Below, one piece after another: positions 36,977-57,753 of a stretch of DNA of 64,000 bases. The stretch covers positions 138,178 through 202,177 of the forward strand of contig JAXGRD010000005.1 of assembly GCA_040766105.1 (NCBI GenBank), read 5' to 3'. The DNA comes from Anaerovoracaceae bacterium (lineage in GTDB: Bacteria > Bacillota > Clostridia > Peptostreptococcales > Anaerovoracaceae). Made by a program: the position numbers and the translations under genes. Each line of letters opens with the position of its first letter. Positions within the stretch are counted from its first letter, which is position 1. The notes below the pieces were generated by a model that worked only from the letters and a program-made list of their open reading frames with translations, was not told the DNA's origin and did no database searches.

Positions 36977-36977
36977 A

Positions 36978-39775: not shown

Positions 39776-39785
39776 GTGGAAAAGC

Positions 39786-40373: not shown

Positions 40374-40387
40374 AATAACGGAAACTG

Positions 40388-40423: not shown

Positions 40424-40437
40424 ATATTACAGGGGTG

Positions 40438-41569: not shown

Positions 41570-42958
41570 ATGGAAAAAAGAAAAGGGAAAGCGGAGCGGC
41601 AATACGAAGCAGACTTTTATAAAATCATGGCCGATAACTTCGGTGATGAAATTTTTGTGACCGACGGAAAGGGAATCACGATATTCGTCAATCCTGCGGC
41701 AGTGGAGGTCATTGGAAAACCTGTTACAGAAATCATCGGACGGCACGTAGACGACTTGGTTGAGGAAGGCTTCTTCAAGCCCAGTGTCACCATGGAGGTT
41801 CTTCGCCAGAGAAAGACCGTTTCCATTATCCAAAAGGTAAAGGAGGATAAGGCTGTTCTGGCAACGGGAGTCCCGATTTTCGGAGACGACCGAGAAAACA
41901 TCATCATGGTAATCAGCACCACAAAGGACGTGGATGCGCTAAATCACCTATTGGGAACCGTGGAATCTCAGCAGGAGGAAATCACCAACTTGCGAGACAA
42001 CGTGTTCTCTGAGGAGGGTTTTATCTCAGTGGACCATGGGATGAAAGAAATCAAGAATACCTTGGTAAAGATAGCCGACCTGGATATGGCAATCCTTGTA
42101 GAGGGAGAGACCGGTGTGGGGAAGGAAGTTGCGGTTCGGACCATTCATCACTTTGGGATTAACAGAAAGGGACCGCTTTTCAAGATAAACTGTGGGACAA
42201 TACCTGAAAATCTCATTGAATCGGAACTCTTTGGATATGAAGCCGGTGCGTTTACCGGTGCCGAGAGGAACGGGAAAAAAGGAAAGATCGAGATGGCCCA
42301 TGGGGGAACACTGTTTTTAGATGAAATTGGGGAGCTTCCGTTGAATTTGCAAGTCAAGCTCTTAGACTTCCTCCAGGAAGGGACTTTTACACGGGTGGGC
42401 GGTACCGAGCCGATAAAAATAAATGCGCGGGTGATTGCCGCCACCAACCGAGACCTTCGCAGGATGTGTGAAGAGGGCACTTTCCGAAAGGATTTGTACT
42501 ACCGCCTGAGCGTCATCCCTGTTCGAATTCCACCCCTTCGGGAACGACCGGATGACATCGATGCCTTGACTCGATACTTTGTTTCTCGGTACAACTCCAA
42601 ATACAGAAGCCACAAGGGAATCGATCCGGAGTTCTATGCCGTCGCCCGAAGCTACAGATGGCCGGGAAATATCCGTGAGTTGGAACATATGATTGAGAGA
42701 ATCTACGTGATGACGGAAGGCGAATTTATCAAGAAGGAGGATTTCGAGAAGATCATGCTAATGGAACACGAGGACCATCGCCAGGGCTCCAACGTAATCT
42801 GCATGGGAATCATGAACCTGAAAGAAGCGAAGTGGGAAGTGGAGAAACAATTGGTTCGTCATGCCTATCAAAAGGAGGGGAGTACCTATAAAGCTGCCAA
42901 GGTTTTGGGGGTGGATCAATCCACGGTGGTAAAGCTCTTAAAAAAGCACGAATCCTAG
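41570..42958 (+). CDS. sigma-54-dependent transcriptional activator (PAS - AAA+ - HTH), paralog 1
   Basis: GETGVGKE Walker A, ESELFGYEAGAFTGA (GAFTGA loop) and a C-terminal Fis-type HTH. The stop codon is TAG. Confidence 0.9.
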   Translation: MEKRKGKAERQYEADFYKIMADNFGDEIFVTDGKGITIFVNPAAVEVIGKPVTEIIGRHVDDLVEEGFFKPSVTMEVLRQRKTVSIIQKVKEDKAVLATGVPIFGDDRENIIMVISTTKDVDALNHLLGTVESQQEEITNLRDNVFSEEGFISVDHGMKEIKNTLVKIADLDMAILVEGETGVGKEVAVRTIHHFGINRKGPLFKINCGTIPENLIESELFGYEAGAFTGAERNGKKGKIEMAHGGTLFLDEIGELPLNLQVKLLDFLQEGTFTRVGGTEPIKINARVIAATNRDLRRMCEEGTFRKDLYYRLSVIPVRIPPLRERPDDIDALTRYFVSRYNSKYRSHKGIDPEFYAVARSYRWPGNIRELEHMIERIYVMTEGEFIKKEDFEKIMLMEHEDHRQGSNVICMGIMNLKEAKWEVEKQLVRHAYQKEGSTYKAAKVLGVDQSTVVKLLKKHES

Positions 42959-43086: not shown

Positions 43087-43102
43087 TGGCATTGATATTG
43101 CT
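43087..43102 (+). promoter_or_regulatory. sigma-54 (-24/-12) promoter TGGCAT-tgata-TTGCT
   Basis: GG-N10-GC spacing is exact. It lies 46 nt upstream of the corrinoid-protein ATG and directly downstream of a sigma-54 activator gene. Confidence 0.75.
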
Positions 43103-43147: not shown

Positions 43148-43801
43148 ATGGCAAGAGAAGATTTAATGAACAGAGCTTTCGAAGCAATCGTTGAAGCCGA
43201 TGAAGATATGGCTACCGAAGTGCTGGAAGAAGGCGAAAAGGAAGGAATCACTGCTGTAGAGCTGCTGCAGGAAGGATTCAGTAAGGGAATGAACGAGCTG
43301 GGTGACAGATTCGGTCGTGGAGAAGTTTTCCTTCCCGAATTGATCTTTGCAACAGAAGTCATGAAAGTCGTTACCGACAAGGTAGACGAAGAATTGGCTG
43401 CCAAGGGTGGCGAAGCAGAGGAAAAGGGCAAGATGATCATGGCGACCGTAGAAGGTGACGTTCACGATATCGGAAAAGGTATCTGCGTATCCATGCTGAA
43501 GTCTGTTGGCCTGGAAGTATATGACCTGGGACGTGAAGTACCTGCCGATGTCATCATCGAAAAGGCGAAGGAAGTCAACGCTGACATCATCGGAACTAGT
43601 GCTCTTCTCACCACCACAATGGTAGTGCAGAAGGAAATCGAAGAGAAGTTGGCTGCTCAGGACTTGAAGAAGGAGTTCAAGACCATGGTAGGTGGATCAC
43701 CGATTACACAGAGATGGGCTGACAAGATTGGTGCAGACGCTTACACCGAGGACGCGTCCGAGTGCTGCCAGAGAGCTCTGAAGTTTATTGATGAGAAATA
43801 A
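43148..43801 (+). CDS. mtbC: methyltransferase-cognate corrinoid (B12-binding) protein
   Basis: 217 aa. N-terminal helical cap plus a B12-binding domain with DVHDIGK (DxHxxG). The symbol is assigned only from adjacency to mtbB. Confidence 0.75.
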   Translation: MAREDLMNRAFEAIVEADEDMATEVLEEGEKEGITAVELLQEGFSKGMNELGDRFGRGEVFLPELIFATEVMKVVTDKVDEELAAKGGEAEEKGKMIMATVEGDVHDIGKGICVSMLKSVGLEVYDLGREVPADVIIEKAKEVNADIIGTSALLTTTMVVQKEIEEKLAAQDLKKEFKTMVGGSPITQRWADKIGADAYTEDASECCQRALKFIDEK

Positions 43802-43822: not shown

Positions 43823-45214
43823 ATGAGTGATAAAAAGTATTTCACCCGTATGGGCGACGGCGAAGCAACATGGATGACCAAAGACGAGCTGAAAGCTGAT
43901 GTTCTTGCCGGAATGGAAGACGCCGTAGTTAAGGGCAAGTCCCAGCCTATGAGCGACGAAGATGTTGAGCACATGATGGAAATCTTGACCATGCCCAACA
44001 AGCTGGTCAGTGTTGAGCCGGGTAATGAAGCCATCACCACATTTGACGCAGGAACCTTGAAGGCACCTGTACGATCCGGATTGCCGGTAGACAGAGGAAC
44101 GGACATCCTCATGCACGAGAGAGTGCTTTGTTCCGATTCCATGGAATTGTGTAACACAGACTACAGCTACAAAGCAATCAAGAATATCGCACCGGAAGAA
44201 GGAATGGCAATGGAGGCTGTACAGCAGCAGACCATCATTCCCCTATTCTACGGCGCAATGCCCAACATGGGATTATACACCAAGCCTGACGGCCCGGTAG
44301 ATAACTGGTCCATGCTCCTTCCCGAAGGGAAAATCAAGGAAGCTATGGCGGCACAGGAAGAAGCTGCAGAGCTGTGTGCGGCAGATATGATCTATATCGG
44401 CTCCATCATGGCAGAAGCAGGTGCTGACGGTATCCAGTTTGATACAGCGGGAGCATCGGGAGATGCCGACGCTTTGGCAGCTCTCAATGCCGCAAAGGCA
44501 TTGTCCGAGAAATATCCGGACCTTTGCATCACCATGGGTATGGCAAACGAGTTCCACTTGGGAATGCACGGCAGACTCAAGTTTGAAGGAGACAAGATTG
44601 CGGGACAGTATCCGGCAGCACAGGTAAAGACTTGTGAAAAGGCCGGCGTACACAGCTACGGTTGCGTAGTTAACACCAACAGCAGCAAGTCCTTTGCATG
44701 GAACCTGGCGAGAGCCACAACTTATGTACAGCAGGCTACAAGAGTAGCGAACATTCCTGTTCTGGTAGATGTAGGAATGGGTGTTGGCGGAATTCCTCTG
44801 ACCAACGTTTCACCTGTTGATGCTACTTCGAGAGTATCCAAGACCATGATTGAAATCGGCAAAGCCGACGGATTGTAGATAGGTCACGGAGATACATTCG
44901 GAATGGCTGCCATTCACGAAGCTGCTGCCGGAATGGGCGGCGTACGAGCTGCCGGAGATCTGGTTGCACGTATGGTCTTCAAGGGAATGAAGCTAAACGA
45001 AGCAAAAGAATATGTCGCAGGAAAACTGGGATGCAGTACAATGGATTTGTCTGATGAGGCTGCCATGAAGGAGATCAGGGAAACTCTGGATATCGGTCAC
45101 ATCATCATCACTCCTCATGCATCTTACGGAATGGCTGCAAAGATTAAGATTGCAGAACTGCTGGACATCACTATTCCTAGCGTTGAGATGTTTAAGAAAC
45201 GTGTAGGTATCTAA
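43823..45214 (+). CDS. mtbB: dimethylamine:corrinoid methyltransferase with an in-frame TAG (pyrrolysine codon) at 44876-44878
   Basis: The track ORFs 43823-44878 and 44903-45214 share a frame and are joined by TAG-ATA-GGT-CAC-GGA-GAT-ACA-TTC-GGA. The combined 463 aa is colinear with Methanosarcina MtbB (PLFYGAMPNMGLY, GADGIQFDTAGASGD, MGMGVGGIP, RAAGDLVARM). Confidence 0.85.
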
Positions 45215-45222
45215 GAATATAT

Positions 45223-45268
45223 GGTATACAGCTCGCAGGAAGGACCTGCGGGCGTATACCTGATTTTT
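45223..45268 (+). terminator. strong intrinsic terminator after mtbB
   Basis: GGTATAC-a-GCTCGCAGG-aagga-CCTGCGGGC-GTATACC, about 16 bp with one bulge, followed by TGATTTTT. Confidence 0.7.
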
Positions 45269-45322
45269 GACTCATGTTACTTATCACTCCAATACGAAAG
45301 GAATATAGGAGGAGAAATAGAA

Positions 45323-46894
45323 ATGGAAAATAACAATTTAGGGAAAAAACAAAAGAAATTTGATGTTCCGCAAATCGTTGTCAGCTGTGCCGTCTTGTTT
45401 GCCTTCGTTGCATTTATGGCGATTAAGCCGGAGATGACACTGAATGCGGTTAACAGTTCCTTTGACTGGCTCATCAAATACTTTGGTTCCATGTTGCTCA
45501 TCTTTACCTTTACAGCTGTTATTATATCGGTATATTTTTGCTTAAGCGGTAAATACGGCAACATCAAATTAGGAGATGCCGAGCCCGAATACAACATGTT
45601 CAGTTATGTGGCCATGATGACCCTTGCTGCTGTTGCATCTGCACTGCTCTACTGGTCATTTACTGAGTGGGCATACTACTATGTGTCCCCGGGAATTGGA
45701 ATCGAGCCGGAATCCATACAGGCGGCGGAGGCTTCATTGGGTTACGCTTTCTTCCACTGGGGTATTTCCGGGCAAGCCATCTACGTGGTCATCGCCTTGG
45801 CACTATCCTATGCTTACTACATCAGAAAGGTGCCGGAACTGCAGACCAGTGCTATCTGTGTTGAGATGATGGGAGACAGATTGAACCCTACCGCCAGAAC
45901 CGGTCTGGGCAAGGTCATTGACTTCGTCGTTATCTTTGGAATCGTTGGTGGTCTTGGATGTTCTTTGGGTCTGGCAGTGCCTCTGGCCGGCGGCGCTTTG
46001 ACTCAACTCTTCGGAATTGACGTCACCTTCCCCATTCAGGTGGGCATCGTACTGTTCATCGCAGCGGTATTCACCTTTACATCCTTTATCGGAACGAAAA
46101 AAGGAATGAAGAACTTGAGTAACGGGTCGGTTATCTTGGCAGGCGTATTCCTGCTTTGGATCTTCTTGACAGGACCTACGGACTTTATCATGAAGAATAC
46201 AGCAAACTCCTTTGGATGGATGTTGGAAATCTTCCCAAGAGCTAGTCTCTTTACCGATCCCATTGCCGATACAGGCTTCCCGGAATCATGGACTCTGTAC
46301 TTCCAGGCATTCTACCTGAACTACGGTGCCATGATGGGAATCTTCATTACCAAAATCTCCAAGGGCAGAACCATCAGACAGCTCTCCATTGCATCCCTCA
46401 TCGGAATCAGTGTGGGCGGTTGGTTGGTGTTTGCTATAGATGGCAGTTTCTCCATCTACTCCCATGTGAACGGATTGACAGACGTTGTAGAGTTAGTAAA
46501 CAGTAACGTAGGAGAAGCCGGAATCTATCAGGTTCTTGAACTCTTGCCCGGCGGCGCAGTATTCCTTCCTGCTTTGGTGTTAATCATCATGGTTGGATTT
46601 GTGGCATCCTCTTTGGACTCCGCTTCCCTTTCGCTGTCACAGACGACCCAGCCCATACCGGAAAAAGACGGCAATGTCAACAGATGGCTTCGTGTGTTCT
46701 GGTGTATCGTATTGACGCTGGTACCACTGTCCATCATGTTTGTAGAAGCAAACTTCTCGATTCTAAAAATATTTTCAATCGTTGTATCCATACCGTTTAT
46801 GTTCGTGGTCATCTTCCTGATGTACAACTTCTTCAGATGGCTGAAGGAAGATGAGAGAGCAGGCAAATTGGACAATATCGGTTTGAAAAAATAA
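45323..46894 (+). CDS. BCCT-family (betaine/carnitine/choline-type) transporter
   Basis: 12-TM profile and BCCT signature ...WTLYFQAFYLNYGAMMGIFITKISKGRTIRQL. The ATG at 45323 lies behind AGGAGG. Confidence 0.8.
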   Translation: MENNNLGKKQKKFDVPQIVVSCAVLFAFVAFMAIKPEMTLNAVNSSFDWLIKYFGSMLLIFTFTAVIISVYFCLSGKYGNIKLGDAEPEYNMFSYVAMMTLAAVASALLYWSFTEWAYYYVSPGIGIEPESIQAAEASLGYAFFHWGISGQAIYVVIALALSYAYYIRKVPELQTSAICVEMMGDRLNPTARTGLGKVIDFVVIFGIVGGLGCSLGLAVPLAGGALTQLFGIDVTFPIQVGIVLFIAAVFTFTSFIGTKKGMKNLSNGSVILAGVFLLWIFLTGPTDFIMKNTANSFGWMLEIFPRASLFTDPIADTGFPESWTLYFQAFYLNYGAMMGIFITKISKGRTIRQLSIASLIGISVGGWLVFAIDGSFSIYSHVNGLTDVVELVNSNVGEAGIYQVLELLPGGAVFLPALVLIIMVGFVASSLDSASLSLSQTTQPIPEKDGNVNRWLRVFWCIVLTLVPLSIMFVEANFSILKIFSIVVSIPFMFVVIFLMYNFFRWLKEDERAGKLDNIGLKK

Positions 46895-46996: not shown

Positions 46997-48424
46997 ATGG
47001 AGAAAGAAAACCAAAAAAACTTTGATAACCTATCGGAAATCGTCCTTATTGAAGACCCTGTTGGCAACATTAAATATGTCAATAAGGCTTTTTGCGATTG
47101 TCACGGTGTTTCTCAAGAAGAGGCTATAGGAAGAAGTTGCTTCGACTTCATCATTCCCGAAGACCGTGAGCGGTGCACCATGCACAATGTGGTCACGCCT
47201 GAAAATTCCAGTTATCGAATCGAAGGAAGGTCTAAAAGGGTCGATGGCAAGATCATTTGGATTCAATATGTGGGAAAGGCTTTCTTCTCCGAAGAAGGAG
47301 AACTTCTTGAATTCCAGGAGTTGGGTGTGGACATCACCCAATGGAAGGAAAAGATTGCCGAAAAGACAAAGGAGCTGGAAAAGGCCAATGAACAGCTAAA
47401 CAGACCTAAAATTTCGGTAGCGGAGACCAAGGTTTCCGGTGGTAAGAATAGTAGCCGCAGAAATGCAGCCATATATAAGTTTTCCGACATTATTACGGCA
47501 AATCCCAAACTTATCGGTCAGAAGACTTATGCGGAAGCGGTAGCCGACGGAGAGTGTTCGGTCCTCATTGAAGGGGAAAGCGGCACCGGCAAGGAGTTGT
47601 TTGCCCAAGCCATCCATAACGGCAGCCGGCGAGTCAACGGTCCCTTCGTAGCGGTGAACTGTGGTGCCATTCCAACAGAGCTAATCAGCAGTGAGTTCTT
47701 TGGCTATGAGGAGGGGGCATTTACGGGAGCGGCAAGAGGCGGCAAGGCGGGAAAGTTTGAGCAGGCCTCGGGAGGAACTCTTTTTCTCGATGAAATCGGA
47801 GAAATGCCCATGGCGCAGCAGGTGGCACTTCTCAGGGTATTGGAGACAAAGTCGGTTACCAGGGTAGGGGGAAATAAAGAAATTCCCATAGATATTCGCA
47901 TTGTCTGTGCCACCAACAGGGACTTACTGGATGAAATCAACCAAAACCGCTTCAGGCGGGACCTGTACTATCGATTGAATATCATCAATATAAAGATCCC
48001 ACCCTTGCGGCAGAGGCGAGAAGATATATACTTGCTCATAGGATACTTCATCAAAAGGTTCGGAAGCAATTCCTTTGCCAAGAGGGCGGCCTTCAGCGAT
48101 GAACAGCTCATTCGACTTTACAACTATGACTGGCCGGGGAATGTGAGAGAATTACAAAACGCAGTAGAGAGGATGCGCTTTCGACCGGAAGAGACGGTAG
48201 ACGAGATCTTGGGAACCATGCAAAGTCAAACTTTGGGAGTGGATAAAAAAACAAAAGGGGAATTGAAAGACAAAGGAAAAATCGGGGAACAAGAAGCCTT
48301 GGAAGAAGCCTTGGAGTTGTGTGAGGGTAACATCAGTATGGTGGCCAGAAAATTAGGAATCTCACGGAAAACCGTATATAAGCGCATGGAGAAATACCAT
48401 ATCCAAGGTGGACAAAAACTGTAA
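46997..48424 (+). CDS. sigma-54-dependent transcriptional activator (PAS - AAA+ - HTH), paralog 2
   Basis: GESGTGKE, SSEFFGYEEGAFTGA and a C-terminal HTH. Confidence 0.9.
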   Translation: MEKENQKNFDNLSEIVLIEDPVGNIKYVNKAFCDCHGVSQEEAIGRSCFDFIIPEDRERCTMHNVVTPENSSYRIEGRSKRVDGKIIWIQYVGKAFFSEEGELLEFQELGVDITQWKEKIAEKTKELEKANEQLNRPKISVAETKVSGGKNSSRRNAAIYKFSDIITANPKLIGQKTYAEAVADGECSVLIEGESGTGKELFAQAIHNGSRRVNGPFVAVNCGAIPTELISSEFFGYEEGAFTGAARGGKAGKFEQASGGTLFLDEIGEMPMAQQVALLRVLETKSVTRVGGNKEIPIDIRIVCATNRDLLDEINQNRFRRDLYYRLNIINIKIPPLRQRREDIYLLIGYFIKRFGSNSFAKRAAFSDEQLIRLYNYDWPGNVRELQNAVERMRFRPEETVDEILGTMQSQTLGVDKKTKGELKDKGKIGEQEALEEALELCEGNISMVARKLGISRKTVYKRMEKYHIQGGQKL

Positions 48425-48518: not shown

Positions 48519-48534
48519 TGGCACAGAAGTTGCT
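48519..48534 (+). promoter_or_regulatory. sigma-54 promoter TGGCAC-agaag-TTGCT (consensus)
   Basis: Perfect TGGCAC-N5-TTGC, 55 nt upstream of the mttB ATG. Confidence 0.85.
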
Positions 48535-48588: not shown

Positions 48589-50067
48589 ATGGCAAAACGA
48601 AAAAAATCAACAGTTGGCGCATTGGATAATTTGAAGTGTGCCAATTCCTATGGGAATAAACTTACAGATGATGAACTTTACGCGATTCATGCAGCAAGTC
48701 TGGAAGTTCTGGCTGAAATCGGAATCAAGGTGGAAAGCAAGAAAGCGCAAAAGATATTTGCTGACGGCGGTGCCACCATTGATGGTGACTTTGTAAGAAT
48801 TCCTCCTTCCTTGGTGGAAGAATGCATCCGCACGGCTCCTTCCGTGATTAAATTGGCAGGCAGAAACCCCAAGAACGATTACATTATCAAGCAAAAGAAA
48901 GTAGCGTTTATCAACTTTGGCGAGGGGGTCAATGTAATCGATCCCTATACAAAGGAATACAGAAGGTCCACCAAGGAAGACCTGGGTCGCAACACTAAGG
49001 TTGCCGACTCCCTAAAGGTGCTTCCCGTTGCCTATCGATCTGTTGCTGCGCAAGATAAGCCGGGTGCAGTACAGGCGCTTCACAATATGGAAGTCATGTT
49101 TCACAACACATCCAAGCATATTTTTATCGGACCCGATGGTGCGGTAAATGCGTCGAAAATTATCGACATGGCCGCATTTATCATGGGCGGCAAGGACGTT
49201 CTTCGGGAGAGACCCATTGTGACATTTAACGTTTGTCCCACCAGCCCTCTCCAACTGAACCCCACGGCGGCAGATACCATTATCGTCGGTGCGGAACATG
49301 GAATCCCCAGCAATGTTATATCCATGGCACTGGCAGGGGCAACCGGACCGGTTACCATGGCCGGCGTCTTGGTTACACACAATGCAGAGGTTCTTTCTGC
49401 TGTGGTTCTTTCCCAGCTGACCAAAAAGGGCGCACCGGTACTGTACGGTAGTTCTACATCCATGATGGACATGCGCCACCTCACTACGCCGGTAGGGGCA
49501 CCGGAATTGGCAATGATCAGCAACGCCGTTGCACAGTTGTCCCAGTACTATCTGCTACCAAGTTTCGTAGCCGGTGGTTAGGCAGACAGCAAGTTACCCG
49601 ATGCACAGGCTGCTCACGAAAAGACCTTAACCGCTATGATGGCTGCCCAGGGCGGCGCCAACCTGATATACGGTGCAGGAATGATCGAACTGGGCATGAC
49701 CTTCGACCTTGCCCAACTGATTATCGACTCAGAAATCTACAAGATGGTATTGCATACTGTAAAGGGATTTGAAGTCAATGAAGAAACGTTGGCTCTTGAT
49801 GTAATCAAGGAGATTAAAACAGGAGAATTCGTTTCTCATCCTCATACAGTGACCAACTTTAAGGACATCCAGTCTCACTCCAACGTGATCAACCGACAGT
49901 CGAGAGAAGCTTGGCTGGCAGGCGGATCCAAGGATATGACAACGGTTGCCTACGAAAAAGCAATAGATATTCTTGAAAATTACACGCCGGATCCCCTTAC
50001 GGATGAACAGGCAGAATATATCAAAAAAATCGTGGAAGATGCGGAAGAGGAATACGGAGTGAAGTAA
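48589..50067 (+). CDS. mttB: trimethylamine:corrinoid methyltransferase with an in-frame TAG (pyrrolysine codon) at 49579-49581
   Basis: The track ORFs 48511-49581 and 49636-50067 share a frame. The junction reads ..[28 protein letters not shown].., matching ..LPSYVAGS-Pyl-SDAKVPDDQAGHEKTMT.. of Methanosarcina MttB as I recall it. The ATG at 48589 (MAKRKK) lies behind GGGAGG. Confidence 0.85.
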
Positions 50068-50078: not shown

Positions 50079-50711
50079 ATGAGCAAGGTATTAAGAAATC
50101 TTAGAGAAGCCATTGAAGACGGCGACATGGATGAAGTGGTGGAGCTGGTTCAGGAAGCATTGGATGACGAAGTCCCCGCCCAAGAAATCCTCAACGACGG
50201 CCTCATTGAAGGGATGAACGAAGTGGGAGATATGTTTAAGGATGGAGAAATGTACGTTCCTGAAGTACTCATGTCGGCCAATGCCATGGATGCGGGGATG
50301 GAAATTCTCAAACCCTACCTGAAGGAAGGGGATGTGAAGAAAGTTGGGAAGGTGGTATTCTGCACTGTAAAAGGAGACCTTCACGATATCGGAAAGAAGC
50401 TCTGCGTCATGATGATGGAAGGCGGCGGCTTTGATGTAGTGGACTTAGGTGTAGATGTAGGTGTTGAAGATATCATGGCGGCAGTGGAAGATCATCAGCC
50501 CAATATTCTGGCAATGTCTGCCATGTTAACCACGACGATGGTTACCATGGACGAGGCAGTAAATGCACTGGAGGAAGCGGGAAAAGATGACATAAAGGTG
50601 ATGGTAGGGGGCGCACCTTTGTCGGGAGATTATGCAGAAAATATTTCTGCCAACTATTCCGAAGATGCCATTGCCGCTGTCGCTTTAGCAAACAAACTTT
50701 TGGGAAACTGA
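50079..50711 (+). CDS. mttC: methyltransferase-cognate corrinoid (B12-binding) protein
   Basis: 210 aa with DLHDIGK (DxHxxG). The symbol comes from adjacency to mttB. Confidence 0.75.
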   Translation: MSKVLRNLREAIEDGDMDEVVELVQEALDDEVPAQEILNDGLIEGMNEVGDMFKDGEMYVPEVLMSANAMDAGMEILKPYLKEGDVKKVGKVVFCTVKGDLHDIGKKLCVMMMEGGGFDVVDLGVDVGVEDIMAAVEDHQPNILAMSAMLTTTMVTMDEAVNALEEAGKDDIKVMVGGAPLSGDYAENISANYSEDAIAAVALANKLLGN

Positions 50712-50824: not shown

Positions 50825-52237
50825 ATGATGGAACACAAAGATGAAAAGATGGATATTCTTTTTAAGGTTATGGACAACGAAAATGACGTGACCTTAACAG
50901 ACGGAAAGGGTGTTGTCATCAGAATCAGTGATTCCTACGAAAAGCACTACAATGTTTCAAAAGATGAAGTGATAGGAAAGTCCATTTGGGAATTGGAAGA
51001 TGTGGGCATATTTAAACCCTCCGTCACCGCCATCGTGCTGGAGAAGAAGTGCAAGGCGACTATATTGCAGAAGAACATGATGGGGGAAAGCATTCTCACT
51101 ACAGGAGTTCCCATTTTTGATGATGAAGGAGAAATTGAATATGTGATCAGCTTCAATTCCATTGACATCGCCAACATGAATTCCCTTCAAGAAAAGTACA
51201 ATAAACTAACGGAATTAATGCAAGCATACAACGAAGAAATCAATGCTCTCAGGATGGAGGAAATCAAGGACAAGGAATTGGTCACCAAAAGCAACCACAT
51301 GGAGAAGATTAAAACATTGGTAGACCAAGTTGCCGACACCCATGCAAACATCTTGATAACAGGAGAAACGGGTGTGGGGAAGAGCATGATTGCAAAAATT
51401 GTCCACCAAAAGAGTGGAAGGGTGGACGGCCCGTTTGTGGAAATCAACTGCGGTACCATACATGAAAACCTAATCGAATCAGAACTCTTTGGCTACGAGA
51501 AGGGGGCCTTTACGGGAGCCAACGAAAAGGGAAAGATGGGCAAGATAGAACTTGCCAACGGTGGCACTCTTTTCCTGGATGAAATCGGGGAACTTTCCTT
51601 GGGCATGCAGATGAAACTGCTGCAGGCGATACAGGAAAAAGAAATTACCCGCGTAGGAGGGCTGAATAAAATCAAGGTGGATTTTCGCCTCATTGCAGCC
51701 ACCAATCGAGATTTAAAGAAGCGAATCAAGGAGAATCTTTTCCGAGAAGATCTATACTATCGATTGAACGTGATCCCCATCTCTATTCATCCCTTGCGAG
51801 ATCGCCCCGATGATATTCGCCCCTTGGTGGAGAACTTTTTGGTTCGTGCCAATGGAAAGTACAACCGAAATGTGACGATCCAAGAAGAGGCAATTGCCTT
51901 ACTGGAAAAGCATAGCTGGCCCGGAAATATAAGGCAAGTGGAGAACTTAGTGGAACGTCTGGTCATCATGTCCGTAGGTGACTTGGTTACGGCTTCCGAT
52001 CTTCCCACAGAAATCCGATATGGTGGAAGAAGCCATTACGGCATTGGCGAAACGGACTCACTGAAAGAGATACTGGAGAGCGTGGAAAAGCAGATTGTGA
52101 AAGAAGCCTACGAAAAAGGGGGAACCAGTATTGCCGTAGGGAAAACCTTGAAAATCAGCCAAGCGACCGCTGCAAGGAAGTTGCGTAAATACATTCCCGG
52201 ATATGCGGAACAGCCCAAGAAAGAGGGTAGTCAATAA
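50825..52237 (+). CDS. sigma-54-dependent transcriptional activator (PAS - AAA+ - HTH), paralog 3
   Basis: GETGVGKS, ESELFGYEKGAFTGA and a C-terminal HTH. Confidence 0.9.
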   Translation: MMEHKDEKMDILFKVMDNENDVTLTDGKGVVIRISDSYEKHYNVSKDEVIGKSIWELEDVGIFKPSVTAIVLEKKCKATILQKNMMGESILTTGVPIFDDEGEIEYVISFNSIDIANMNSLQEKYNKLTELMQAYNEEINALRMEEIKDKELVTKSNHMEKIKTLVDQVADTHANILITGETGVGKSMIAKIVHQKSGRVDGPFVEINCGTIHENLIESELFGYEKGAFTGANEKGKMGKIELANGGTLFLDEIGELSLGMQMKLLQAIQEKEITRVGGLNKIKVDFRLIAATNRDLKKRIKENLFREDLYYRLNVIPISIHPLRDRPDDIRPLVENFLVRANGKYNRNVTIQEEAIALLEKHSWPGNIRQVENLVERLVIMSVGDLVTASDLPTEIRYGGRSHYGIGETDSLKEILESVEKQIVKEAYEKGGTSIAVGKTLKISQATAARKLRKYIPGYAEQPKKEGSQ

Positions 52238-52417
52238 TGACTAATAGTCATCTGTGATTACTCCGGTAAATCAGCATTATGCGTCATTCCCGTCCCATTC
52301 TAGTCAAAAATGAATACACCTAAGTTGAGACCTTCGTGAGTCTTTGAAATCATCCTTAGAAACCCTTAAATTTCAATGAAATTCAACCATACTCTTTCAC
52401 ACGACATGCCATTTTTA

Positions 52418-52433
52418 TGGCATGTTCTTTGCT
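52418..52433 (+). promoter_or_regulatory. sigma-54 promoter TGGCAT-gttct-TTGCT
   Basis: Exact GG-N10-GC spacing, 54 nt upstream of the aminotransferase ATG. Confidence 0.75.
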
Positions 52434-52486
52434 TATATTATTCTCAATGATAAGTAAGATCTACCGTAAGGGAAAAGGAGAAGAAA

Positions 52487-53839
52487 ATGGATTTAAGAAA
52501 CAGTTTGCCCAAAATCGTTACGGAGAAAGTACCGGGACCCAAATCTGCAGAAATGCTGAAGATTAGAAAGGACAATGTAACCGATGCCGTGGGGATGCTT
52601 TCACCGGTCTTCGTGGAAAGGGCCGAAGGCGCCATGGTGCTGGACATTGACGGGAACACCTTTGTGGACTTTGTAGCGGGCATCGGCGTGCTCAATGTGG
52701 GCCATTCTCATCCAGAGGTGGTGGAGGCTGTCAAAGCCCAATGTGATAAGTACTTTGCTCCCAATATCAATGTGTTCAACTACGAACAATACCCGAGATT
52801 GGCGGAAAAGCTCAATGAGATTATTCCCATAGATGGAGAAAAGGAAACGATTTTGGTCAACACCGGTGCGGAAGCGGACGAAAATGCCATCAAACTGGCA
52901 AGGCGTTTTACCGGAAGGTCAGAGGTCATTTGCTTTACAGGTGCTTTTCACGGAAGATCCTACATGACCATGGCCATGACCAGTAAGTGCCGCCCCTATA
53001 AAACGGGATTCGGACCATTGCCCGGCGGTGTCCATCGCTTCCCCTTTCCCTACTGCTATCGTTGTCCCTATGGCTTGGAAAAAGAAAGCTGCGGACTACA
53101 CTGTGCAAAGATGTTTGAAGAGAGCTTTTTCCTGGAGTACGTAGCACCGGATCAGGTGGCAGCTATTATCATAGAGCCAATCCTGGGTGAAGGGGGCTTT
53201 GTTGTAGCTCCCGATGAATTCATGGTGGAAATGCGAAGGTTGTGCGATAAGTACGGCATAGTCCTCATTGCCGATGAGATTCAAACAGGCTATGCAAGAA
53301 CGGGGAAGATGTTTGCCTGTCAGCATTGGAGCGTCAAGCCGGATATGGTGGTCAGTGCCAAATCCGTTGCAGGAGGAATTCCCGTTTCCTGTGTCACTGC
53401 AAGACAGGACATCATGGATTCGGTGGGCCCGGGAGAACTGGGTGGAACCTATTCGGGGAACGCCTTGGCCACTGCCTCAGCACTTAAGATTTTGGAAATC
53501 TTGAAGAGGGATGACTTCTGCGGAAAGGCAAATCACATTGGAGATATCCTGACAAAGCGACTCTATGAATGTAAGGAGAAATACGAGATTATTGGCGATG
53601 TGAGAGGTGTCGGTGCCATGATGGCCATTGAGTTGGTAAAGAACAGGGCTACAAAGGAACCTGCCAAAGATGAAACGAAAAAAATCATTGGAGAGTGTAT
53701 CGCAAATGGCCTGGTTGTTTTAGGGGCCGGCGTAAGAGACAACTGTATAAGGTTCCTGACTCCCCTTGTGATTACCGATGAACAGCTGAATGCAGGCTTA
53801 GATATTTTGGAAAAAGCCATTGAAAGAGTAAACGAATAG
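52487..53839 (+). CDS. class-III PLP-dependent aminotransferase (GabT / omega-aminotransferase-like)
   Basis: 450 aa with GIGVLNVGHSHP, FTGAFHGRS, LIADEIQTGYARTG and VSAKSVAGG (PLP Lys). The stop codon is TAG. Confidence 0.8.
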   Translation: MDLRNSLPKIVTEKVPGPKSAEMLKIRKDNVTDAVGMLSPVFVERAEGAMVLDIDGNTFVDFVAGIGVLNVGHSHPEVVEAVKAQCDKYFAPNINVFNYEQYPRLAEKLNEIIPIDGEKETILVNTGAEADENAIKLARRFTGRSEVICFTGAFHGRSYMTMAMTSKCRPYKTGFGPLPGGVHRFPFPYCYRCPYGLEKESCGLHCAKMFEESFFLEYVAPDQVAAIIIEPILGEGGFVVAPDEFMVEMRRLCDKYGIVLIADEIQTGYARTGKMFACQHWSVKPDMVVSAKSVAGGIPVSCVTARQDIMDSVGPGELGGTYSGNALATASALKILEILKRDDFCGKANHIGDILTKRLYECKEKYEIIGDVRGVGAMMAIELVKNRATKEPAKDETKKIIGECIANGLVVLGAGVRDNCIRFLTPLVITDEQLNAGLDILEKAIERVNE

Positions 53840-53856
53840 GATAAGGAGAAGAAAAA

Positions 53857-54879
53857 ATGAAGAAAGTATTGGTAGTAGGATACGGTGTAATTGGGCAGAG
53901 ATTGGCGGACGGTGTGGCGGCCCAGGAAGATATGGAACTGGTAGGGGTGGTAGATGCTGCACCAACCTTGGGCTTGATGGCACTGAGGGAGAAGGGAATG
54001 CCATATAAACTGTACACCCCCAACCAAGAGAAAAAAGAACTGTTGGAAGAGAAAGGCTTTGAAATAACCGGTGTATTAGAGGATGTTCTGCCTGAAGTGG
54101 ATATCGTCTTAGATTCCACCAGCGCTGGCGTGGGTGCCCAAAACAAGGAGCTATATCTAAAGCATGGAAAAAAGGCCATCTTCCAAGGGGGTGAAAGCAA
54201 TGAAATTGCAGACATCTTTTTCCACGGCTATGCCAACTATGAAAAGGGCGTAGGGAAAGACTATTTAAAACTCACATCCTGTAATACTACGGGACTCATT
54301 CGAGCAATTCACTGCTTGGATAAGACGGTGGGAATTGAAAAAGTTGCCATTACCATTGTGAGAAGAGTCGCCGATCCGGGGGACTACCACAGAGGCTTGA
54401 CCAATGCGCTCCAGGTAGACAAGGCTCCCAGTCACCAAGCGGTGGACCTGATGACCATCATGCCTCACATTGATGCCACCGGTATACTGGTCCATACTCC
54501 AGTGACCCACGGCCACTTCATCACGGTTGTGGCAACACCGAAAGAGGACATCTCCGTGGAAGAAGTGAAAAAGGCCTTTGAGAGCCATGACAGAATCAGA
54601 GTCGTCAGCTTGGATCAGGGGTTCCTAGGCAATGCCTCTCTCTTCAAATATGCAAGAGATCTAGGTCGACCAAGGGGAGACCTATATGAAATATGTGTTT
54701 GGGAAGATACCATCGTAAAATCCGGAAAGGACATCATGTTTGGAATTCACATACCACAAGAATCCATTACCATTCCCGAGACCATCGACGGAATACGAGC
54801 TGCACTGGAAATGCAAACCGACGGAGCAGATGCCGTTGCAGCGACCAACAAGTATTTGGGGTTGCCGTCATGGAAGTAG
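53857..54879 (+). CDS. type II (archaeal-type) phosphorylating glyceraldehyde-3-phosphate dehydrogenase homolog
   Basis: 340 aa, colinear with archaeal GAPDH as I recall it: GYGVIGQRLADGV, KAIFQGGE, active-site SCNTTGL, VRRVADP, PSHQ. The stop codon is TAG. Confidence 0.8.
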   Translation: MKKVLVVGYGVIGQRLADGVAAQEDMELVGVVDAAPTLGLMALREKGMPYKLYTPNQEKKELLEEKGFEITGVLEDVLPEVDIVLDSTSAGVGAQNKELYLKHGKKAIFQGGESNEIADIFFHGYANYEKGVGKDYLKLTSCNTTGLIRAIHCLDKTVGIEKVAITIVRRVADPGDYHRGLTNALQVDKAPSHQAVDLMTIMPHIDATGILVHTPVTHGHFITVVATPKEDISVEEVKKAFESHDRIRVVSLDQGFLGNASLFKYARDLGRPRGDLYEICVWEDTIVKSGKDIMFGIHIPQESITIPETIDGIRAALEMQTDGADAVAATNKYLGLPSWK

Positions 54880-54896
54880 GCAGCAAGATCAAACAT

Positions 54897-56111
54897 ATGG
54901 ATGAGTTTGATTGTAAAGGGAAGACGGTGTTATTGCGGGTGGATATCAATTCCCCCATCGACAGTAAAACGAAAAAAATAGTCAACGAAAACAGGATTCA
55001 AAAAAGCATCCCCACCATCGAAGGTCTTCTCCAAAAGGGAGCAAGGCTTGCCATCATAGCTCACCAAGGAGACACCTTGGATTATCCAAACCTGATTTCC
55101 ATGGAGGAGCACGCTGCAAAACTGGGGAAATATCTTGGGAGAAAAGTGAAATACGTGGACGATGTGGCAGGTCCCGCCGCTCAACTGGCTGTGAAGAACC
55201 TAAGAGAAGGGGAGGCTGTTCTTCTGGGAAATTTAAGATACTTGACGGAAGAAGTGTCAACATTTGAGAATGCTGTGAAACTTTGCCCTGAGGAAATGAC
55301 GGAGACCTACTTGGTCCGCAACTTGGCACCATTGATGGACATCTACATCAATGATGCCTTTGCGGCAGCCCACAGAAATGCTCCTTCCATGGTGGCTTTT
55401 CAGGAACTCTTGCCCAGTGGGGGAGGTCTTCTCCTCATGGAAGAAGTATCTTCTCTTTCAAAAGTGTTGACGGACCCGGCAAAGCCCTGCGTTTTTGTGT
55501 TGGGAGGAGCGAAGATTTCGGATGCTTTCGGTATGATGGGAACTGTTCTGGCATCCGGTGCCGCGGACAAAATCTTGACCTGCGGAGTGACCGGCGAGAT
55601 TATGCTCATGGCACAGGGAATATCTTTGGGCAGTGTGAAGGAAGGTTTTATTAAGGATAGAGGACTGGATGTCTTTTGTAAGGATGCGGAAAAATACCTT
55701 TGGGATTATCCGGATAAGATATTGTTTCCTTGGGATTTGGCATATGAAAAGTCCTCCAAGAGAGAAGAAATCTTTGTGAATCGCTTGCCCCAAGAGGAAA
55801 TGTTCATGGACATTGGAGAAGAGACTATCAGGAGATACGGAGAAGAAATAAAAAAGGCTGCCACCATATTTGTCAACGGGCCTGCCGGAGCCTATGAGAA
55901 TCCAATCTTTGAAAAAGGGACAAGGGAAATCCTCGGTTATATAGCAGAAGCGAAGGGGTATTCTGTCATCGGCGGCGGTGATACGGTGGCAGCGGCACAA
56001 AAGTTGGTAGGAACCCAAGGGATTGATTATGTCAGCACTGCGGGAGGTGCCATGGTTCAATACATGTCCGGAAAAGAACTGCCCCTCCTGAAAGCAATGA
56101 TGAAGAAGTAG
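54897..56111 (+). CDS. archaeal-type phosphoglycerate kinase homolog
   Basis: MDEFDCKGKTVLLRVDINSPID...IIAHQGD...VKYVDDVAGP..LLGNLRYLTEE resembles archaeal rather than bacterial PGK. The start is 54897 or 54870. The track ORF from 54693 overlaps the previous gene. The stop codon is TAG. Confidence 0.75.
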   Translation: MDEFDCKGKTVLLRVDINSPIDSKTKKIVNENRIQKSIPTIEGLLQKGARLAIIAHQGDTLDYPNLISMEEHAAKLGKYLGRKVKYVDDVAGPAAQLAVKNLREGEAVLLGNLRYLTEEVSTFENAVKLCPEEMTETYLVRNLAPLMDIYINDAFAAAHRNAPSMVAFQELLPSGGGLLLMEEVSSLSKVLTDPAKPCVFVLGGAKISDAFGMMGTVLASGAADKILTCGVTGEIMLMAQGISLGSVKEGFIKDRGLDVFCKDAEKYLWDYPDKILFPWDLAYEKSSKREEIFVNRLPQEEMFMDIGEETIRRYGEEIKKAATIFVNGPAGAYENPIFEKGTREILGYIAEAKGYSVIGGGDTVAAAQKLVGTQGIDYVSTAGGAMVQYMSGKELPLLKAMMKK

Positions 56112-56118
56112 AAGGAGA

Positions 56119-57381
56119 GTGAAATTGCATAAGGTTCAATTGAAATACGGAAGGGGACAGGTGTCCCTTGCAATTCCTGATCATAATTACATGGGGACAT
56201 TGGTGCCCAAGGATAGGAGCGAATCTTGCAATGAAGAGGCGATAATTGCAGAGGCAATGAACCATCCCATTGGTACCCAGCGTCTAAGAGATATTGTACA
56301 GCCGGACAATAAGGTAGTAATTGTGACCAGCGATATTACACGACCTCTCCCCACCGATAGAATCCTGCCTTCTGTTCTTGAAGAATTGAAGGCAGGAGGG
56401 GTGGCGGAATCCAACATTACAGTCGTCTTCGCCTTGGGAAGCCATCGACCCCATACAGAAGAAGAAAAAATGAGATTGGTGGGAGCGGACATATACCACA
56501 GCGATGTTTTCCTCTTGGACAGCAACATGGAGGACTGCGTTAATTTGGGAACTTGTGACCACGGCACTCCTGCAGACATCTTCAAGCCTGTGGTGGATGC
56601 AGATGTTCGGGTGTGTCTGGGCAACGTAGAGTTTCACTATTTCGCCGGCTATTCGGGGGGAAGTAAGGCTCTCATGCCGGGCGTGTCCAGCCGCAGAGCG
56701 ATTCAAGCCAACCACTCCAACATGGTGAAGCCGGAAGCCCAATCGGGTAGGTTAGAGGGAAATCCAGTGAGGGAAGACATCGACCAAATCACAGAGTTCC
56801 TTCCCATTGAATTCATCGTCAACGTAGTTCTAAACGATAAGGTGAAGATTGTAAGCGCTTTTGCCGGTCATCACAGACTCGCTCATCGGGAAGGGTGCAA
56901 GGCAATCGATGATATGTACAAGATTGAAATCGAAAAGTCTGCGGACATTGTGGTGCTATCTCCCGGGGGCTTCCCCAAAGATATTAATCTCTATCAGGCC
57001 CAAAAGGGTTTGGACAATGCCCAACATGCGGTGAAAGACGGTGGAATCGTTATTTGGTGCGCTGCTGCGGGGGAAGGCTTCGGCGAAAAGAACTTTGAGG
57101 ATTGGATGGTCAATAAAAGCGTGGATGAAATGATTCAAGATATTTCCGAGAAGTTCCTGTTGGGTGCCCATAAAGCGGCAGCAATAGCCATGGTTCTGAA
57201 GAGGGCTTCCGTTTATCTTGTTTCCCAGTTGGAAGAAGAAACCGTTGAAAGAATTGGGTTTACGCACTTTGACTCGCCGCAATCCGCTCTTAATCATGCC
57301 TTATCCATTTTGGGAGAAGATGCGTCGGTGCTGGTAATGCCTTATGCAGGATCCACCTTGCCTTTCTGTCCTAACCTATGA
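56119..57381 (+). CDS. LarA-family nickel-pincer-dependent 2-hydroxyacid racemase/epimerase homolog
   Basis: 420 aa. GTG start behind GAAGGAG. GSHRPH, EFHYFAGYSGGSKALMPG and IQANHS match the LarA catalytic His/His, the cofactor-tethering Lys and the Ni-His positions as I recall them. Confidence 0.8.
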   Translation: MKLHKVQLKYGRGQVSLAIPDHNYMGTLVPKDRSESCNEEAIIAEAMNHPIGTQRLRDIVQPDNKVVIVTSDITRPLPTDRILPSVLEELKAGGVAESNITVVFALGSHRPHTEEEKMRLVGADIYHSDVFLLDSNMEDCVNLGTCDHGTPADIFKPVVDADVRVCLGNVEFHYFAGYSGGSKALMPGVSSRRAIQANHSNMVKPEAQSGRLEGNPVREDIDQITEFLPIEFIVNVVLNDKVKIVSAFAGHHRLAHREGCKAIDDMYKIEIEKSADIVVLSPGGFPKDINLYQAQKGLDNAQHAVKDGGIVIWCAAAGEGFGEKNFEDWMVNKSVDEMIQDISEKFLLGAHKAAAIAMVLKRASVYLVSQLEEETVERIGFTHFDSPQSALNHALSILGEDASVLVMPYAGSTLPFCPNL

Positions 57382-57423
57382 TATAATTCAGAAAATTCGT
57401 ATAATAATATCAAGGAGGTCGCT

Positions 57424-57753
57424 ATGGGTTATGTTAAAGTTGACTCCCTTGACCGGTTGCCACCGGGTCAAATGAAGGGGTACACAGTGGAAGGAAGAAA
57501 AATCCTCGTTGCAAATGTCGATGATTCCTTCTACGCCATGGACAATACCTGCCCCCACATGGGTGGTGTATTAAGTGAAGGAAAATTGGAAGGAAGCCAT
57601 GTGGTTTGTCCGAAACACGGGTCTATTTTTGATGTAACCAGTGGGAAGGCAGTGCAAGATGGCAAGATGTTTTTTATCAAAGCGAAGGTGCATGACTTGA
57701 AGGGGTATCAGGTCAAGATTGAGGGGGATGCTATTTTCATTGAAGTGGAGTAG
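57424..57753 (+). CDS. Rieske [2Fe-2S] ferredoxin-like protein
   Basis: 109 aa with CPHMGG ... CPKHGS (CxH...CxxH). The stop codon is TAG. Confidence 0.8.
   Translation: MGYVKVDSLDRLPPGQMKGYTVEGRKILVANVDDSFYAMDNTCPHMGGVLSEGKLEGSHVVCPKHGSIFDVTSGKAVQDGKMFFIKAKVHDLKGYQVKIEGDAIFIEVE

Follow-up and report, generated by a model that had tools for sequence, protein, structure and literature searches.

What do homologues of archaeal-type glyceraldehyde 3-phosphate (G3P) dehydrogenase (GAPDH) and phosphoglycerate kinase (PGK) do in a bacterial operon that also encodes an aminotransferase and a predicted racemase? We examined such an operon in a 64,000-nucleotide stretch of an Anaerovoracaceae bacterium (Clostridia; GenBank assembly GCA_040766105.1, contig JAXGRD010000005.1, positions 138,178 to 202,177 of the forward strand), hereafter the window, whose first letter is position 1 for all coordinates below. 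The operon formed by the aminotransferase, the type II GAPDH homologue (GAP2), the PGK homologue and a LarA homologue is real, conserved and not glycolytic. Its products probably convert an amine to D-malate semialdehyde, D-malyl phosphate, D-malate plus ATP and finally L-malate.

A conserved operon behind a sigma-54 promoter

The operon, its promoter, the activator gene before it and the gene that follows it are as follows.

50825..52237, + strand: EBP1, sigma-54 enhancer-binding activator (Pfam Sigma54_activat 234 bits, PAS_9, HTH_50)
52418..52433, + strand: sigma-54 promoter (-24/-12), TGGCATgttctTTGCT, match to TGGCAY-N5-TTGCW
52487..53839, + strand: class-III aminotransferase of the 4-aminobutyrate (GABA) aminotransferase type (Pfam Aminotran_3, 419 bits)
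53857..54879, + strand: GAP2, type II (archaeal-type) GAPDH homologue (NF003251)
54897..56111, + strand: archaeal-type PGK homologue (Pfam PGK, PF00162, 362 bits, profile positions 1-379)
56119 (GTG) or 56125 (TTG) to 57381, + strand: LarA-family nickel-pincer enzyme (NF052593)
57424..57753, + strand: small Rieske [2Fe-2S] ferredoxin-like protein, 109 amino acids (Pfam Rieske)

All five genes lie on the + strand with gaps of 17, 17, 7-13 and 42 nucleotides; an alternative in-frame ATG for PGK at 54870 would overlap the GAP2 stop by 10 nucleotides. A preliminary description, made from the letters of the window, had seen five tightly spaced genes behind a sigma-54 promoter with gaps of 8-43 nucleotides, which our values closely match. 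Its five-gene operon holds for the four conserved genes and probably fails for the Rieske gene, which has a promoter of its own and is missing from orthologous operons. The conserved unit is four genes: aminotransferase, GAP2, PGK and LarA. The same description had remarked on the missing glycolytic neighbours, and we likewise saw no tpi, gpmI or eno among the annotated genes of the 64 kb window.

The promoter (TGGCAT-N5-TTGCT) stands 53 nucleotides upstream of the aminotransferase ATG (52487), with the activator gene directly upstream, and locus L087 is laid out alike. It combines the GG of the -24 element and the GC of the -12 element at the correct spacing with a gene for an AAA+ activator. 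The consensus TGGCAY-N5-TTGCW has exactly three matches in the window compared with 0.18 expected, a number reached in none of 100 shuffles. The matches precede operon starts by 53-70 nucleotides, and all three operons stand after a gene for a PAS-domain sigma-54 activator. The other two matches precede operons for methylamine-type demethylation.

43087..43102, + strand: sigma-54 promoter TGGCATtgataTTGCT, match to TGGCAY-N5-TTGCW, preceding the MtbB-BCCT operon
48519..48534, + strand: sigma-54 promoter TGGCACagaagTTGCT, match to TGGCAY-N5-TTGCW, preceding the MttB operon

EBP1, which consists of a PAS sensor, an AAA+ domain and an HTH domain, is the presumed regulator of the aminotransferase-GAP2-PGK-LarA operon, and its orthologues (53-70% identity) stand ahead of orthologous operons. 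A near-perfect inverted repeat, GACATGCCAT-TTTT-ATGGCATGTT (52403-52426), overlaps the -24 element. TAG is the stop codon of the aminotransferase (53837-53839), GAP2 (54877-54879), PGK (56109-56111) and Rieske (57751-57753) genes, and ends 11 of the 48 open reading frames of the window; the organism must decode TAG as pyrrolysine in the nearby MttB and MtbB genes. If pyrrolysine decoding were induced together with the operon, read-through of TAG would give short C-terminal extensions.

The GAP2-PGK pair across bacterial phyla

Scanning GTDB species genomes and, separately, metagenomes yielded 160 loci related to the operon (L numbers below), from Clostridia, Negativicutes, Spirochaetes, Victivallales, Atribacterota, Anaerolineae, Desulfovibrionales and marine Gammaproteobacteria. 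Of the 126 evaluable loci, 125 had a PGK homologue next to GAP2, with GAP2 at least 68% identical throughout. Homologues of GAP2 in bacteria numbered 5853 proteins at E <= 1e-20, the best 120 of which were all at least 72% identical. Neighbours were counted in the 69 loci whose flanks extended 5 kb or more in each direction; in every one of these (69/69) GAP2 and PGK were adjacent.

LarA at 45% identity or more: 23/69
More distant LarA: 19/69
Malic enzyme: 23/69
IolG, IolE, IolD, IolB: about 33/69
Two-subunit (split) transketolase: 24/69
Orthologue of the window aminotransferase: 5/69
None of the associated genes: 19/69

Two architectures recur. In the first (a), found in Oscillospiraceae, Christensenellaceae, Sinanaerobacter and Family XIII, a sigma-54 activator is followed by the aminotransferase, GAP2, PGK, malic enzyme and LarA, with a TRAP transporter alongside under its own sigma-54 promoter. 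Orthologues of the aminotransferase (78-84% identity) stand directly 5' of GAP2 in at least 10 loci. Two loci carry, beside the TRAP transporter, two tandem genes of the 3-hydroxyacyl-CoA / L-carnitine dehydrogenase family (L087 1-1761 and L092 13589-15444) with a sigma-54-like promoter (one mismatch) in front; their products might act on the 3-hydroxyl group or its stereochemistry.

In the second architecture (b), a LacI regulator or ABC importer accompanies GAP2, PGK, TktN, TktC, IolB, IolD, IolE and IolG, with or without LarA and malic enzyme (for example L094 10001-19147; also L041, L042, L051, L056, L081, L108, L110 and L119). IolC, IolJ and IolA are not present in these operons, which look like an undescribed transketolase-dependent myo-inositol pathway giving D-malate and ATP. 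C. magnum DSM 2767 has two separate GAP2-PGK loci: one is an inositol and transketolase operon, and the other consists of malic enzyme, GAP2, PGK and LarA (L051 and L058).

A further group from marine Gammaproteobacteria (L095, from Gammaproteobacteria TMED78, 1-14349; L019, L021, L023, L031, L034 and L043) carries the pair at 71-76% identity. These loci contain no LarA, malic enzyme, Iol genes or aminotransferase, and the pair adjoins a TRAP transporter, a TauE-type exporter, a sulfatase and DUF membrane proteins. The substrate in these organisms may differ, and sulfolactaldehyde is one candidate.

Residue changes in GAP2 and PGK

GAP2 passed both curated models of type II GAPDH (NF003251, 409 bits vs a cut-off of 185; TIGR01546, 313 vs 233), and its closest solved relatives are the archaeal GAPDHs 1CF2 (best), 2CZC, 1B7G and 2YYY. 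The catalytic Cys142 (SCNTTG), His218/His220 and Arg169/Arg170 are invariant in the clade and common to the four archaeal structures. Other positions that the four archaeal enzymes share without exception are uniformly changed in the bacterial clade, at Lys33, in the PSHH and VHQES motifs and at Thr259. In 100% of the bacterial sequences Asp stands for Lys33, Gln for the second PSHH His (S. solfataricus His193) and Pro for the His of VHQES; Asn takes the place of Thr259. Newly invariant in the clade are His123, Tyr125, Tyr177, His178, His204, His213, His244 and Arg248. Replacement of Lys33 by Asp commonly marks a change of cofactor from NADP to NAD and suggests that GAP2 uses NAD+ over NADP+.

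An orthologue in P. thermosuccinogenes that is 75% identical to GAP2 (CDQ83_07070; P0087 in our set) had no GAPDH activity on G3P with NAD+ or NADP+, in a study that did measure activity for two type I GAPDHs from that organism (PMC6543838).

The PGK homologue passed no NCBIfam equivalog cut-off, its sole match being the bifunctional PGK/TIM model (287 bits vs 883), and its nearest solved relative is the archaeal PGK 2CUN. Residues are numbered here as in human PGK, and the motifs are consistent with 2CUN and 4DG5. In PGK, the 3-phosphate is bound by Arg65, Arg122 and Arg170, the bridging oxygen by His62 and the 2-hydroxyl by Asp23 and Asn25 (PMC7729029). The equivalent of Arg65 is Asp in 69 of 70 members of the clade (motif AHQGDTLDY) and Lys219 is Ala, while Arg122, Arg170, Arg38, His62, Asp23, Asn25, Lys215 and Glu343 are kept invariant. 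Among these, Asp23, Asn25, Arg38, Lys215 and Glu343 make up the set that recognizes the 2-hydroxyl and carboxyl groups and serves catalysis on the nucleotide side.

The aminotransferase and the LarA homologue

The aminotransferase passed the GABA aminotransferase model (TIGR00700, 526 bits vs a cut-off of 506.65), and its closest solved relatives are PuuE and GabT. A gabD-type partner is not present beside it; its partners are GAP2, PGK and a predicted malate racemase.

The LarA homologue passed the equivalog cut-off for the nickel-dependent malate racemase LarAH6 (NF052593, 536 bits vs 500), and its best solved relative is the malate racemase Mar2 (6D6Z; 408 bits, compared with 240 for lactate racemase). 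Its SHR (LGSHRPHT), FHY, GGSK and NH (ANH) motifs, including EFHYFAGYSGGSKALMPG, align with their Mar2 counterparts, which we take to be the catalytic His pair, the cofactor-anchoring Lys and the nickel-binding His. It is predicted to be a malate racemase acting from D-malate to L-malate.

A proposed route from an amine to malate

In the pathway that we consider likely, EBP1 would switch on the operon through the -24/-12 promoter at 52418, and the GABA-type aminotransferase would convert 4-amino-3-hydroxybutyrate and 2-oxoglutarate (as the 2-oxoacid) to D-malate semialdehyde and glutamate. D-malate semialdehyde (3-hydroxy-4-oxobutanoate, OHC-CHOH-CH2-COO-) resembles D-glyceraldehyde 3-phosphate but for a carboxylate where that compound has its phosphate, so that chemistry of the GAPDH and PGK type would give D-malyl phosphate and then D-malate plus ATP. 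GAP2 (Cys142, His218/His220) would perform the first of these steps with NAD+ and phosphate, and the PGK paralogue the second with ADP, for a gain of one ATP by substrate-level phosphorylation. The nickel-pincer LarA homologue would then turn D-malate into L-malate, from which the malic enzyme co-encoded in sister operons would make pyruvate. A racemase and a malic enzyme are found among the neighbours, we propose, because the pathway would yield D-malate. The most likely substrate of the operon is (R)-4-amino-3-hydroxybutyrate (GABOB), the fully demethylated carnitine skeleton.

The inositol-type operons would reach the same intermediate by another path. IolG, IolE, IolD and IolB would give 2-deoxy-5-keto-D-gluconate, a D-threo ketose of the kind accepted by transketolase, and removal of its C2 ketol would leave D-malate semialdehyde. 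Textbook transketolase cleavage of this ketose yields OHC-CHOH-CH2-COO- in the D configuration, a step that we infer for these operons. Architectures (a) and (b) are predicted to converge on D-malate semialdehyde.

The preliminary description had already read the operon as a passage from amine through aldehyde and acyl phosphate to carboxylate and ATP, followed by inversion, a sequence that the conserved pair, its neighbours, the altered residues and the inactive orthologue support computationally. Its example, 4-amino-3-hydroxybutyrate giving (R)-malate in need of a malate racemase, accords with a LarA above the malate-racemase cut-off and closest to Mar2. The comparisons of gene neighbourhoods and of phosphate-binding residues that it had recommended gave the following: the GAP2-PGK pair is kept across phyla with orthologous operons in other Clostridia, PGK has Asp for Arg65, and GAP2 loses two archaeal-invariant His. 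The adjacency to methylamine demethylation modules that it had pointed out recurs in three other lineages.

Alternative explanations

Several points weigh against the malate semialdehyde pathway. The evidence is comparative and computational throughout, and every step is a deduction from it. By its sequence GAP2 would be filed as a GAPDH, above NCBI's curated type II cut-offs, and its altered residues are known from the alignment rather than from placement on the phosphate sites. The negative assay of CDQ83_07070 could stem from poor expression. The annotated genes of the window include no malic enzyme, no LarB, LarC or LarE cofactor genes and no TRAP transporter. GABOB is not, to our knowledge, recognized as an abundant environmental substrate, and the literature searched, which left most subscription journals outside, describes no microbial GABOB catabolism. 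The 19 of 69 loci with none of the associated genes, mostly from marine Gammaproteobacteria, indicate that the GAP2-PGK clade may accept other anionic 2-hydroxyaldehydes.

This last point bears on the alternative that survives best, although we consider it unlikely: that the substrate carries another distal anion, with 3-amino-2-hydroxypropanesulfonate passing through sulfolactaldehyde and sulfolactyl phosphate to sulfolactate and LarA serving as a sulfolactate racemase, or with a phosphonate or glycerate analogue in their place. Sulfolactaldehyde, too, is an analogue of G3P, and the neighbours of the pair in marine Gammaproteobacteria include a TRAP transporter, a sulfatase and a TauE-type exporter but neither LarA nor malic enzyme. 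Set against this are the malate-racemase type of LarA in the window and its close relatives, the malic enzyme within sister operons, an inositol and transketolase context that predicts a carboxylate aldehyde, and a window without desulfonation genes.

Marginally less likely again is the oxidation of plain GABA, for example from gamma-butyrobetaine, through succinate semialdehyde and succinyl phosphate to succinate and ATP, with LarA serving something else. An aminotransferase above the GABA-aminotransferase equivalog cut-off, with GabT and PuuE as its best solved relatives, is what this explanation would predict. However, the PGK clade keeps the 2-hydroxyl binders Asp23 and Asn25, malate racemase and malic enzyme co-occur repeatedly, and the inositol and transketolase route gives a 2-hydroxyaldehyde, with GAP2 at least 68% identical across both contexts.

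That GAP2 and PGK are an ordinary glycolytic or gluconeogenic pair of archaeal origin, acting on G3P and 3-phosphoglycerate beside an unrelated aminotransferase and racemase, is improbable. The type II GAPDH cut-offs, the strong Pfam PGK match and the conservation of the catalytic residues and most of the basic patch all speak for it. Yet there is no tpi, gpm or eno context, and the pair is steadily linked to the aminotransferase, Iol genes, transketolase, malic enzyme and LarA. In addition, the orthologue is inactive on G3P in a genome with two active type I GAPDHs (PMC6543838), C. magnum maintains two separate GAP2-PGK loci, Arg65 is replaced by Asp, two archaeal-invariant His are lost, and PGK falls below every NCBIfam equivalog cut-off.

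Least probable of all is a biosynthetic direction from L-malate through D-malate, malyl phosphate and malate semialdehyde to 4-amino-3-hydroxybutyrate, mirroring the logic of ArgB, ArgC and ArgD: the GAPDH, PGK and transaminase reactions are indeed reversible, but PAS-sensor sigma-54 activators and uptake transporters (TRAP, BCCT) are typical of catabolic operons, the same pair occurs in plainly catabolic inositol operons with sugar ABC importers, and malic enzyme lies downstream.

Neighbouring demethylation modules and a possible carnitine route

The two other sigma-54 operons of the window, upstream of EBP1, encode methyltransferases of the pyrrolysine type with their corrinoid proteins.

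41570..42958, + strand: EBP3, sigma-54 activator of the MtbB-BCCT operon (Pfam)
43148..43801, + strand: corrinoid protein, partner of MtbB (Pfam B12-binding, B12-binding_2; TIGR02370)
43823..45214, + strand: MtbB, pyrrolysine-type dimethylamine-methyltransferase homologue (Pfam Dimeth_Pyl in two pieces)
45221..46894, + strand: BCCT-family transporter in the MtbB operon (Pfam BCCT, 369 bits; best NCBIfam match PRK09950, below cut-off)
46997..48424, + strand: EBP2, sigma-54 activator of the MttB operon (Pfam)
48589..50067, + strand: MttB, pyrrolysine-type trimethylamine-methyltransferase homologue (Pfam MTTB in two pieces)
50079..50711, + strand: corrinoid protein, partner of MttB (Pfam; NCBIfam)

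Both methyltransferase genes have an in-frame TAG where pyrrolysine is encoded. MtbB has it at 44876-44878 and passed TIGR02368 (458 bits vs 369); MttB has it at 49579-49581, passed TIGR02369 (654 bits vs 525) and matched M. barkeri MttB (7XCM) with 350 bits. The sensors of EBP1 and EBP3 are 35% identical and EBP2 is unrelated to both; we dropped the likeness of EBP1 to EBP3 as evidence for related ligands, since 35% identity is too weak.

Similar associations occur in three further clusters. In a Peptococcaceae metagenome-assembled genome (MAG; L093), a sigma-54 promoter precedes an aminotransferase of a different subfamily, MtbB (with pyrrolysine), a corrinoid protein, MttB (with pyrrolysine) and an MttB paralogue (with Val in its place), and the cluster continues with an activator, GAP2, PGK, LarA, a methyl-tetrahydrofolate methyltransferase and PylSc. 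A Sporomusa MAG (L176) has an aminotransferase, MtbB (pyrrolysine), a corrinoid protein, MttB (pyrrolysine) and MttB (Val), then GAP2, malic enzyme, PGK and a methyl-tetrahydrofolate methyltransferase, with LarA upstream. 'Ca. Formimonas warabiya' (L178) has an activator, MttB (Val), MtbB (pyrrolysine), a corrinoid protein, MttB (pyrrolysine), BCCT, an aminotransferase 49% identical to that of the window, and LarA; GAP2 and PGK were not within the 10 kb examined. The single activators of L093 and L178 are 46-50% identical to EBP3. Four lineages, the window's included, place pyrrolysine MttB and MtbB beside an aminotransferase and a LarA of the malate-racemase type, in three of the four with GAP2 and PGK adjacent. 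Neither the window nor the L093, L176 and L178 clusters showed an MtmB gene. The further methyltransferase-linked loci came from searching with an MttB paralogue lacking pyrrolysine; L177, from this paralogue context, has pyl genes only, and a metagenome scan for such loci gave nothing beyond two aminotransferase-type loci.

MttB paralogues with Val, Ile or His replacing pyrrolysine (motif GGG[VIH]SDSK) form a clade (P0133-P0170; L093 6578-8059, L176 10001-11458 and L178 10001-11482). They still score above the trimethylamine-methyltransferase model cut-off (603 bits in L093) and often adjoin pyrrolysine MttB and MtbB genes. We regard them as candidate methyltransferases for quaternary amines. 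Amines of this type are demethylated by MttB-family members that lack pyrrolysine, and the residue itself is believed to form a quaternary adduct with a tertiary amine (PMC12155760). To date, only simple methylamines are known as substrates of pyrrolysine enzymes, and what the bacterial ones do is an open question (PMC9768040).

The two pyrrolysine enzymes could simply use free trimethylamine and dimethylamine, which is the alternative here. The missing MtmB, and the aminotransferase, BCCT transporter and malate module co-encoded in four lineages, argue for larger amines as their substrates. The link suggests stepwise demethylation of carnitine or norcarnitine to a primary amine: a series of quaternary, tertiary, secondary and primary amines that ends at malate semialdehyde would fit carnitine, norcarnitine, N-methyl-GABOB and GABOB. 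The amine would probably come from the neighbouring sigma-54 operons (MtbB-BCCT and MttB), whose products would strip N-methyl groups from norcarnitine or carnitine in corrinoid-dependent reactions; this is the weaker part of the proposal.

As a whole, a pyrrolysine-dependent demethylation of the carnitine skeleton upstream of the operon, making up a full anaerobic carnitine route without release of trimethylamine, is a serious yet tentative possibility. An MttB paralogue without pyrrolysine (Val or Ile there) would take the first methyl off the quaternary amine, the pyrrolysine MttB the second, from the tertiary amine norcarnitine, and the pyrrolysine MtbB the third, from the secondary amine N-methyl-4-amino-3-hydroxybutyrate. 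The aminotransferase would then remove the nitrogen, the GAPDH and PGK paralogues would harvest ATP, and the nickel racemase would deliver L-malate. The route would be spread over three adjacent sigma-54 operons, with counterparts in the Peptococcaceae MAG, the Sporomusa MAG and 'Ca. Formimonas warabiya'.

The window also encodes a methyl branch of the Wood-Ljungdahl pathway (7128-12744: MTHFR, formate-tetrahydrofolate ligase, a cyclohydrolase-like FTCD_C protein and FolD), interrupted by an IS110-family transposase gene (8154-9317, minus strand). This branch fits methyl groups being channelled through tetrahydrofolate. An Ech/complex-I-like membrane hydrogenase module lies at 35039-41532 (antiporter-like, NuoH-like, 20-kDa, 49-kDa/NiFe and 4Fe-4S subunits), directly followed by a EutH-family permease just 5' of the first sigma-54 activator.

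Relation to known systems

In A. baumannii, experiments have traced L-carnitine by way of malic semialdehyde to D-malate, and the aerobic CntAB pathway there shares with our proposal these two intermediates, a carnitine stereocentre that is kept, uptake by a BCCT transporter, and D-malate that must enter central metabolism (PMC11353897). In contrast to the proposal, it requires oxygen, since a Rieske oxygenase cleaves the C-N bond, it releases trimethylamine, and it uses a non-phosphorylating aldehyde dehydrogenase with no gain of ATP. D-malate is cleared there by a decarboxylating dehydrogenase, whereas a nickel racemase would clear it here, and the nitrogen would leave by transamination after demethylation.

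In Eubacterium limosum, MtcB with MtqC and MtqA (also MtyB and MtpB) likewise combine an MttB-superfamily methyltransferase, a corrinoid protein and a methyl-tetrahydrofolate methyltransferase, and carnitine is attacked anaerobically with no trimethylamine formed (PMC8604678, PMC12155760). That pathway ends at norcarnitine and involves only enzymes without pyrrolysine, whereas here pyrrolysine MttB and MtbB are co-encoded with an aminotransferase and a malate module, which would imply complete demethylation and use of the carbon skeleton.

GAP2 and PGK share with the archaeal type II GAPDH and PGK their catalytic residues and, as predicted, the thioester, acyl-phosphate and ATP chemistry. They differ from archaeal lower glycolysis and gluconeogenesis in their bacterial host, their catabolic operons, the replacement of Lys33 by Asp, the loss of two His, the replacement of Arg65 by Asp and a G3P-inactive orthologue.

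Among nickel-pincer malate racemases, represented by Mar1 (LarAH5) and Mar2 (LarAH6), the LarA of the operon belongs by its model match and closest relative with the latter. Malate racemases have been described as the largest group in the LarA superfamily (PMC11770544). The LarA literature searched names no physiological source of D-malate for them, and a supplementary context table there places PGK and malic enzyme beside LarA homologues, uninterpreted.

A synthetic pathway to 2,4-dihydroxybutyrate likewise has malyl phosphate and malate semialdehyde as intermediates (PMC5481828). It differs from the proposal in being man-made, in running in the reductive direction and in using the other regio-isomer (4-phosphomalate, 2-hydroxy-4-oxobutanoate). 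Its malate kinase and malate semialdehyde dehydrogenase were reportedly engineered from aspartate kinase and aspartate-semialdehyde dehydrogenase. Within the literature searched, with the coverage given above, there was no description of the proposed amine-to-malate route as a whole, of a phosphorylating malate-semialdehyde dehydrogenase, of an inositol pathway with transketolase, GAPDH and PGK, or of pyrrolysine enzymes acting on norcarnitine.

Genes downstream of the operon

The Rieske gene is preceded by a sigma-70-like promoter (TTGCCT, an 18-nucleotide spacer with TG, TATAAT; 57358-57387), stands beside GAP2 in none of the 160 related loci, and has homologues (54-57% identity, Oscillospiraceae) that are stand-alone genes in unrelated contexts. 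On these grounds we rejected the Rieske protein as a member of the pathway, and its gene is probably a separate, unrelated unit. A surface protein follows.

57765-59657, + strand: surface protein of 630 amino acids, 11 nucleotides after the Rieske gene

It has a signal peptide, a DxSxS motif of the vWA type (MIDAS-like) and a C-terminal SPRTG sortase signal with a hydrophobic tail, and had no match in Pfam or NCBIfam. Its gene is cleanly missing in two otherwise identical strains (L001 and L003), in which the Rieske gene adjoins that for pyruvate:ferredoxin oxidoreductase. The lack of a family match and the absence from these strains led us to reject it too, and pyruvate:ferredoxin oxidoreductase was rejected as an operon member, since a spacer of 170 nucleotides that contains an inverted repeat sets it apart and it has a sigma-70-like promoter of its own.

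Implications

If the proposed pathway is correct, bacteria would have re-used an archaeal gap-pgk pair for the energy-conserving anaerobic oxidation of a 2-hydroxyaldehyde other than a sugar phosphate. It would constitute a natural malyl-phosphate pathway, and would provide malate racemases with a concrete source of D-malate and hence a physiological role. The same GAP2-PGK module would also define an undescribed transketolase-dependent inositol pathway. Thousands of bacterial annotations as 'type II GAPDH' and 'PGK' are probably misnamed, given the 5853 homologues of GAP2.

Should the carnitine route hold, it would provide the first substrates for pyrrolysine enzymes that are not simple methylamines, which is an open question (PMC9768040). 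If the methyltransferase link holds, some anaerobes could break down carnitine or norcarnitine completely and release no trimethylamine, from which trimethylamine N-oxide derives, and such trimethylamine-free use of carnitine would bear on the question of the gut microbiome and cardiovascular disease (PMC8604678, PMC10653893).

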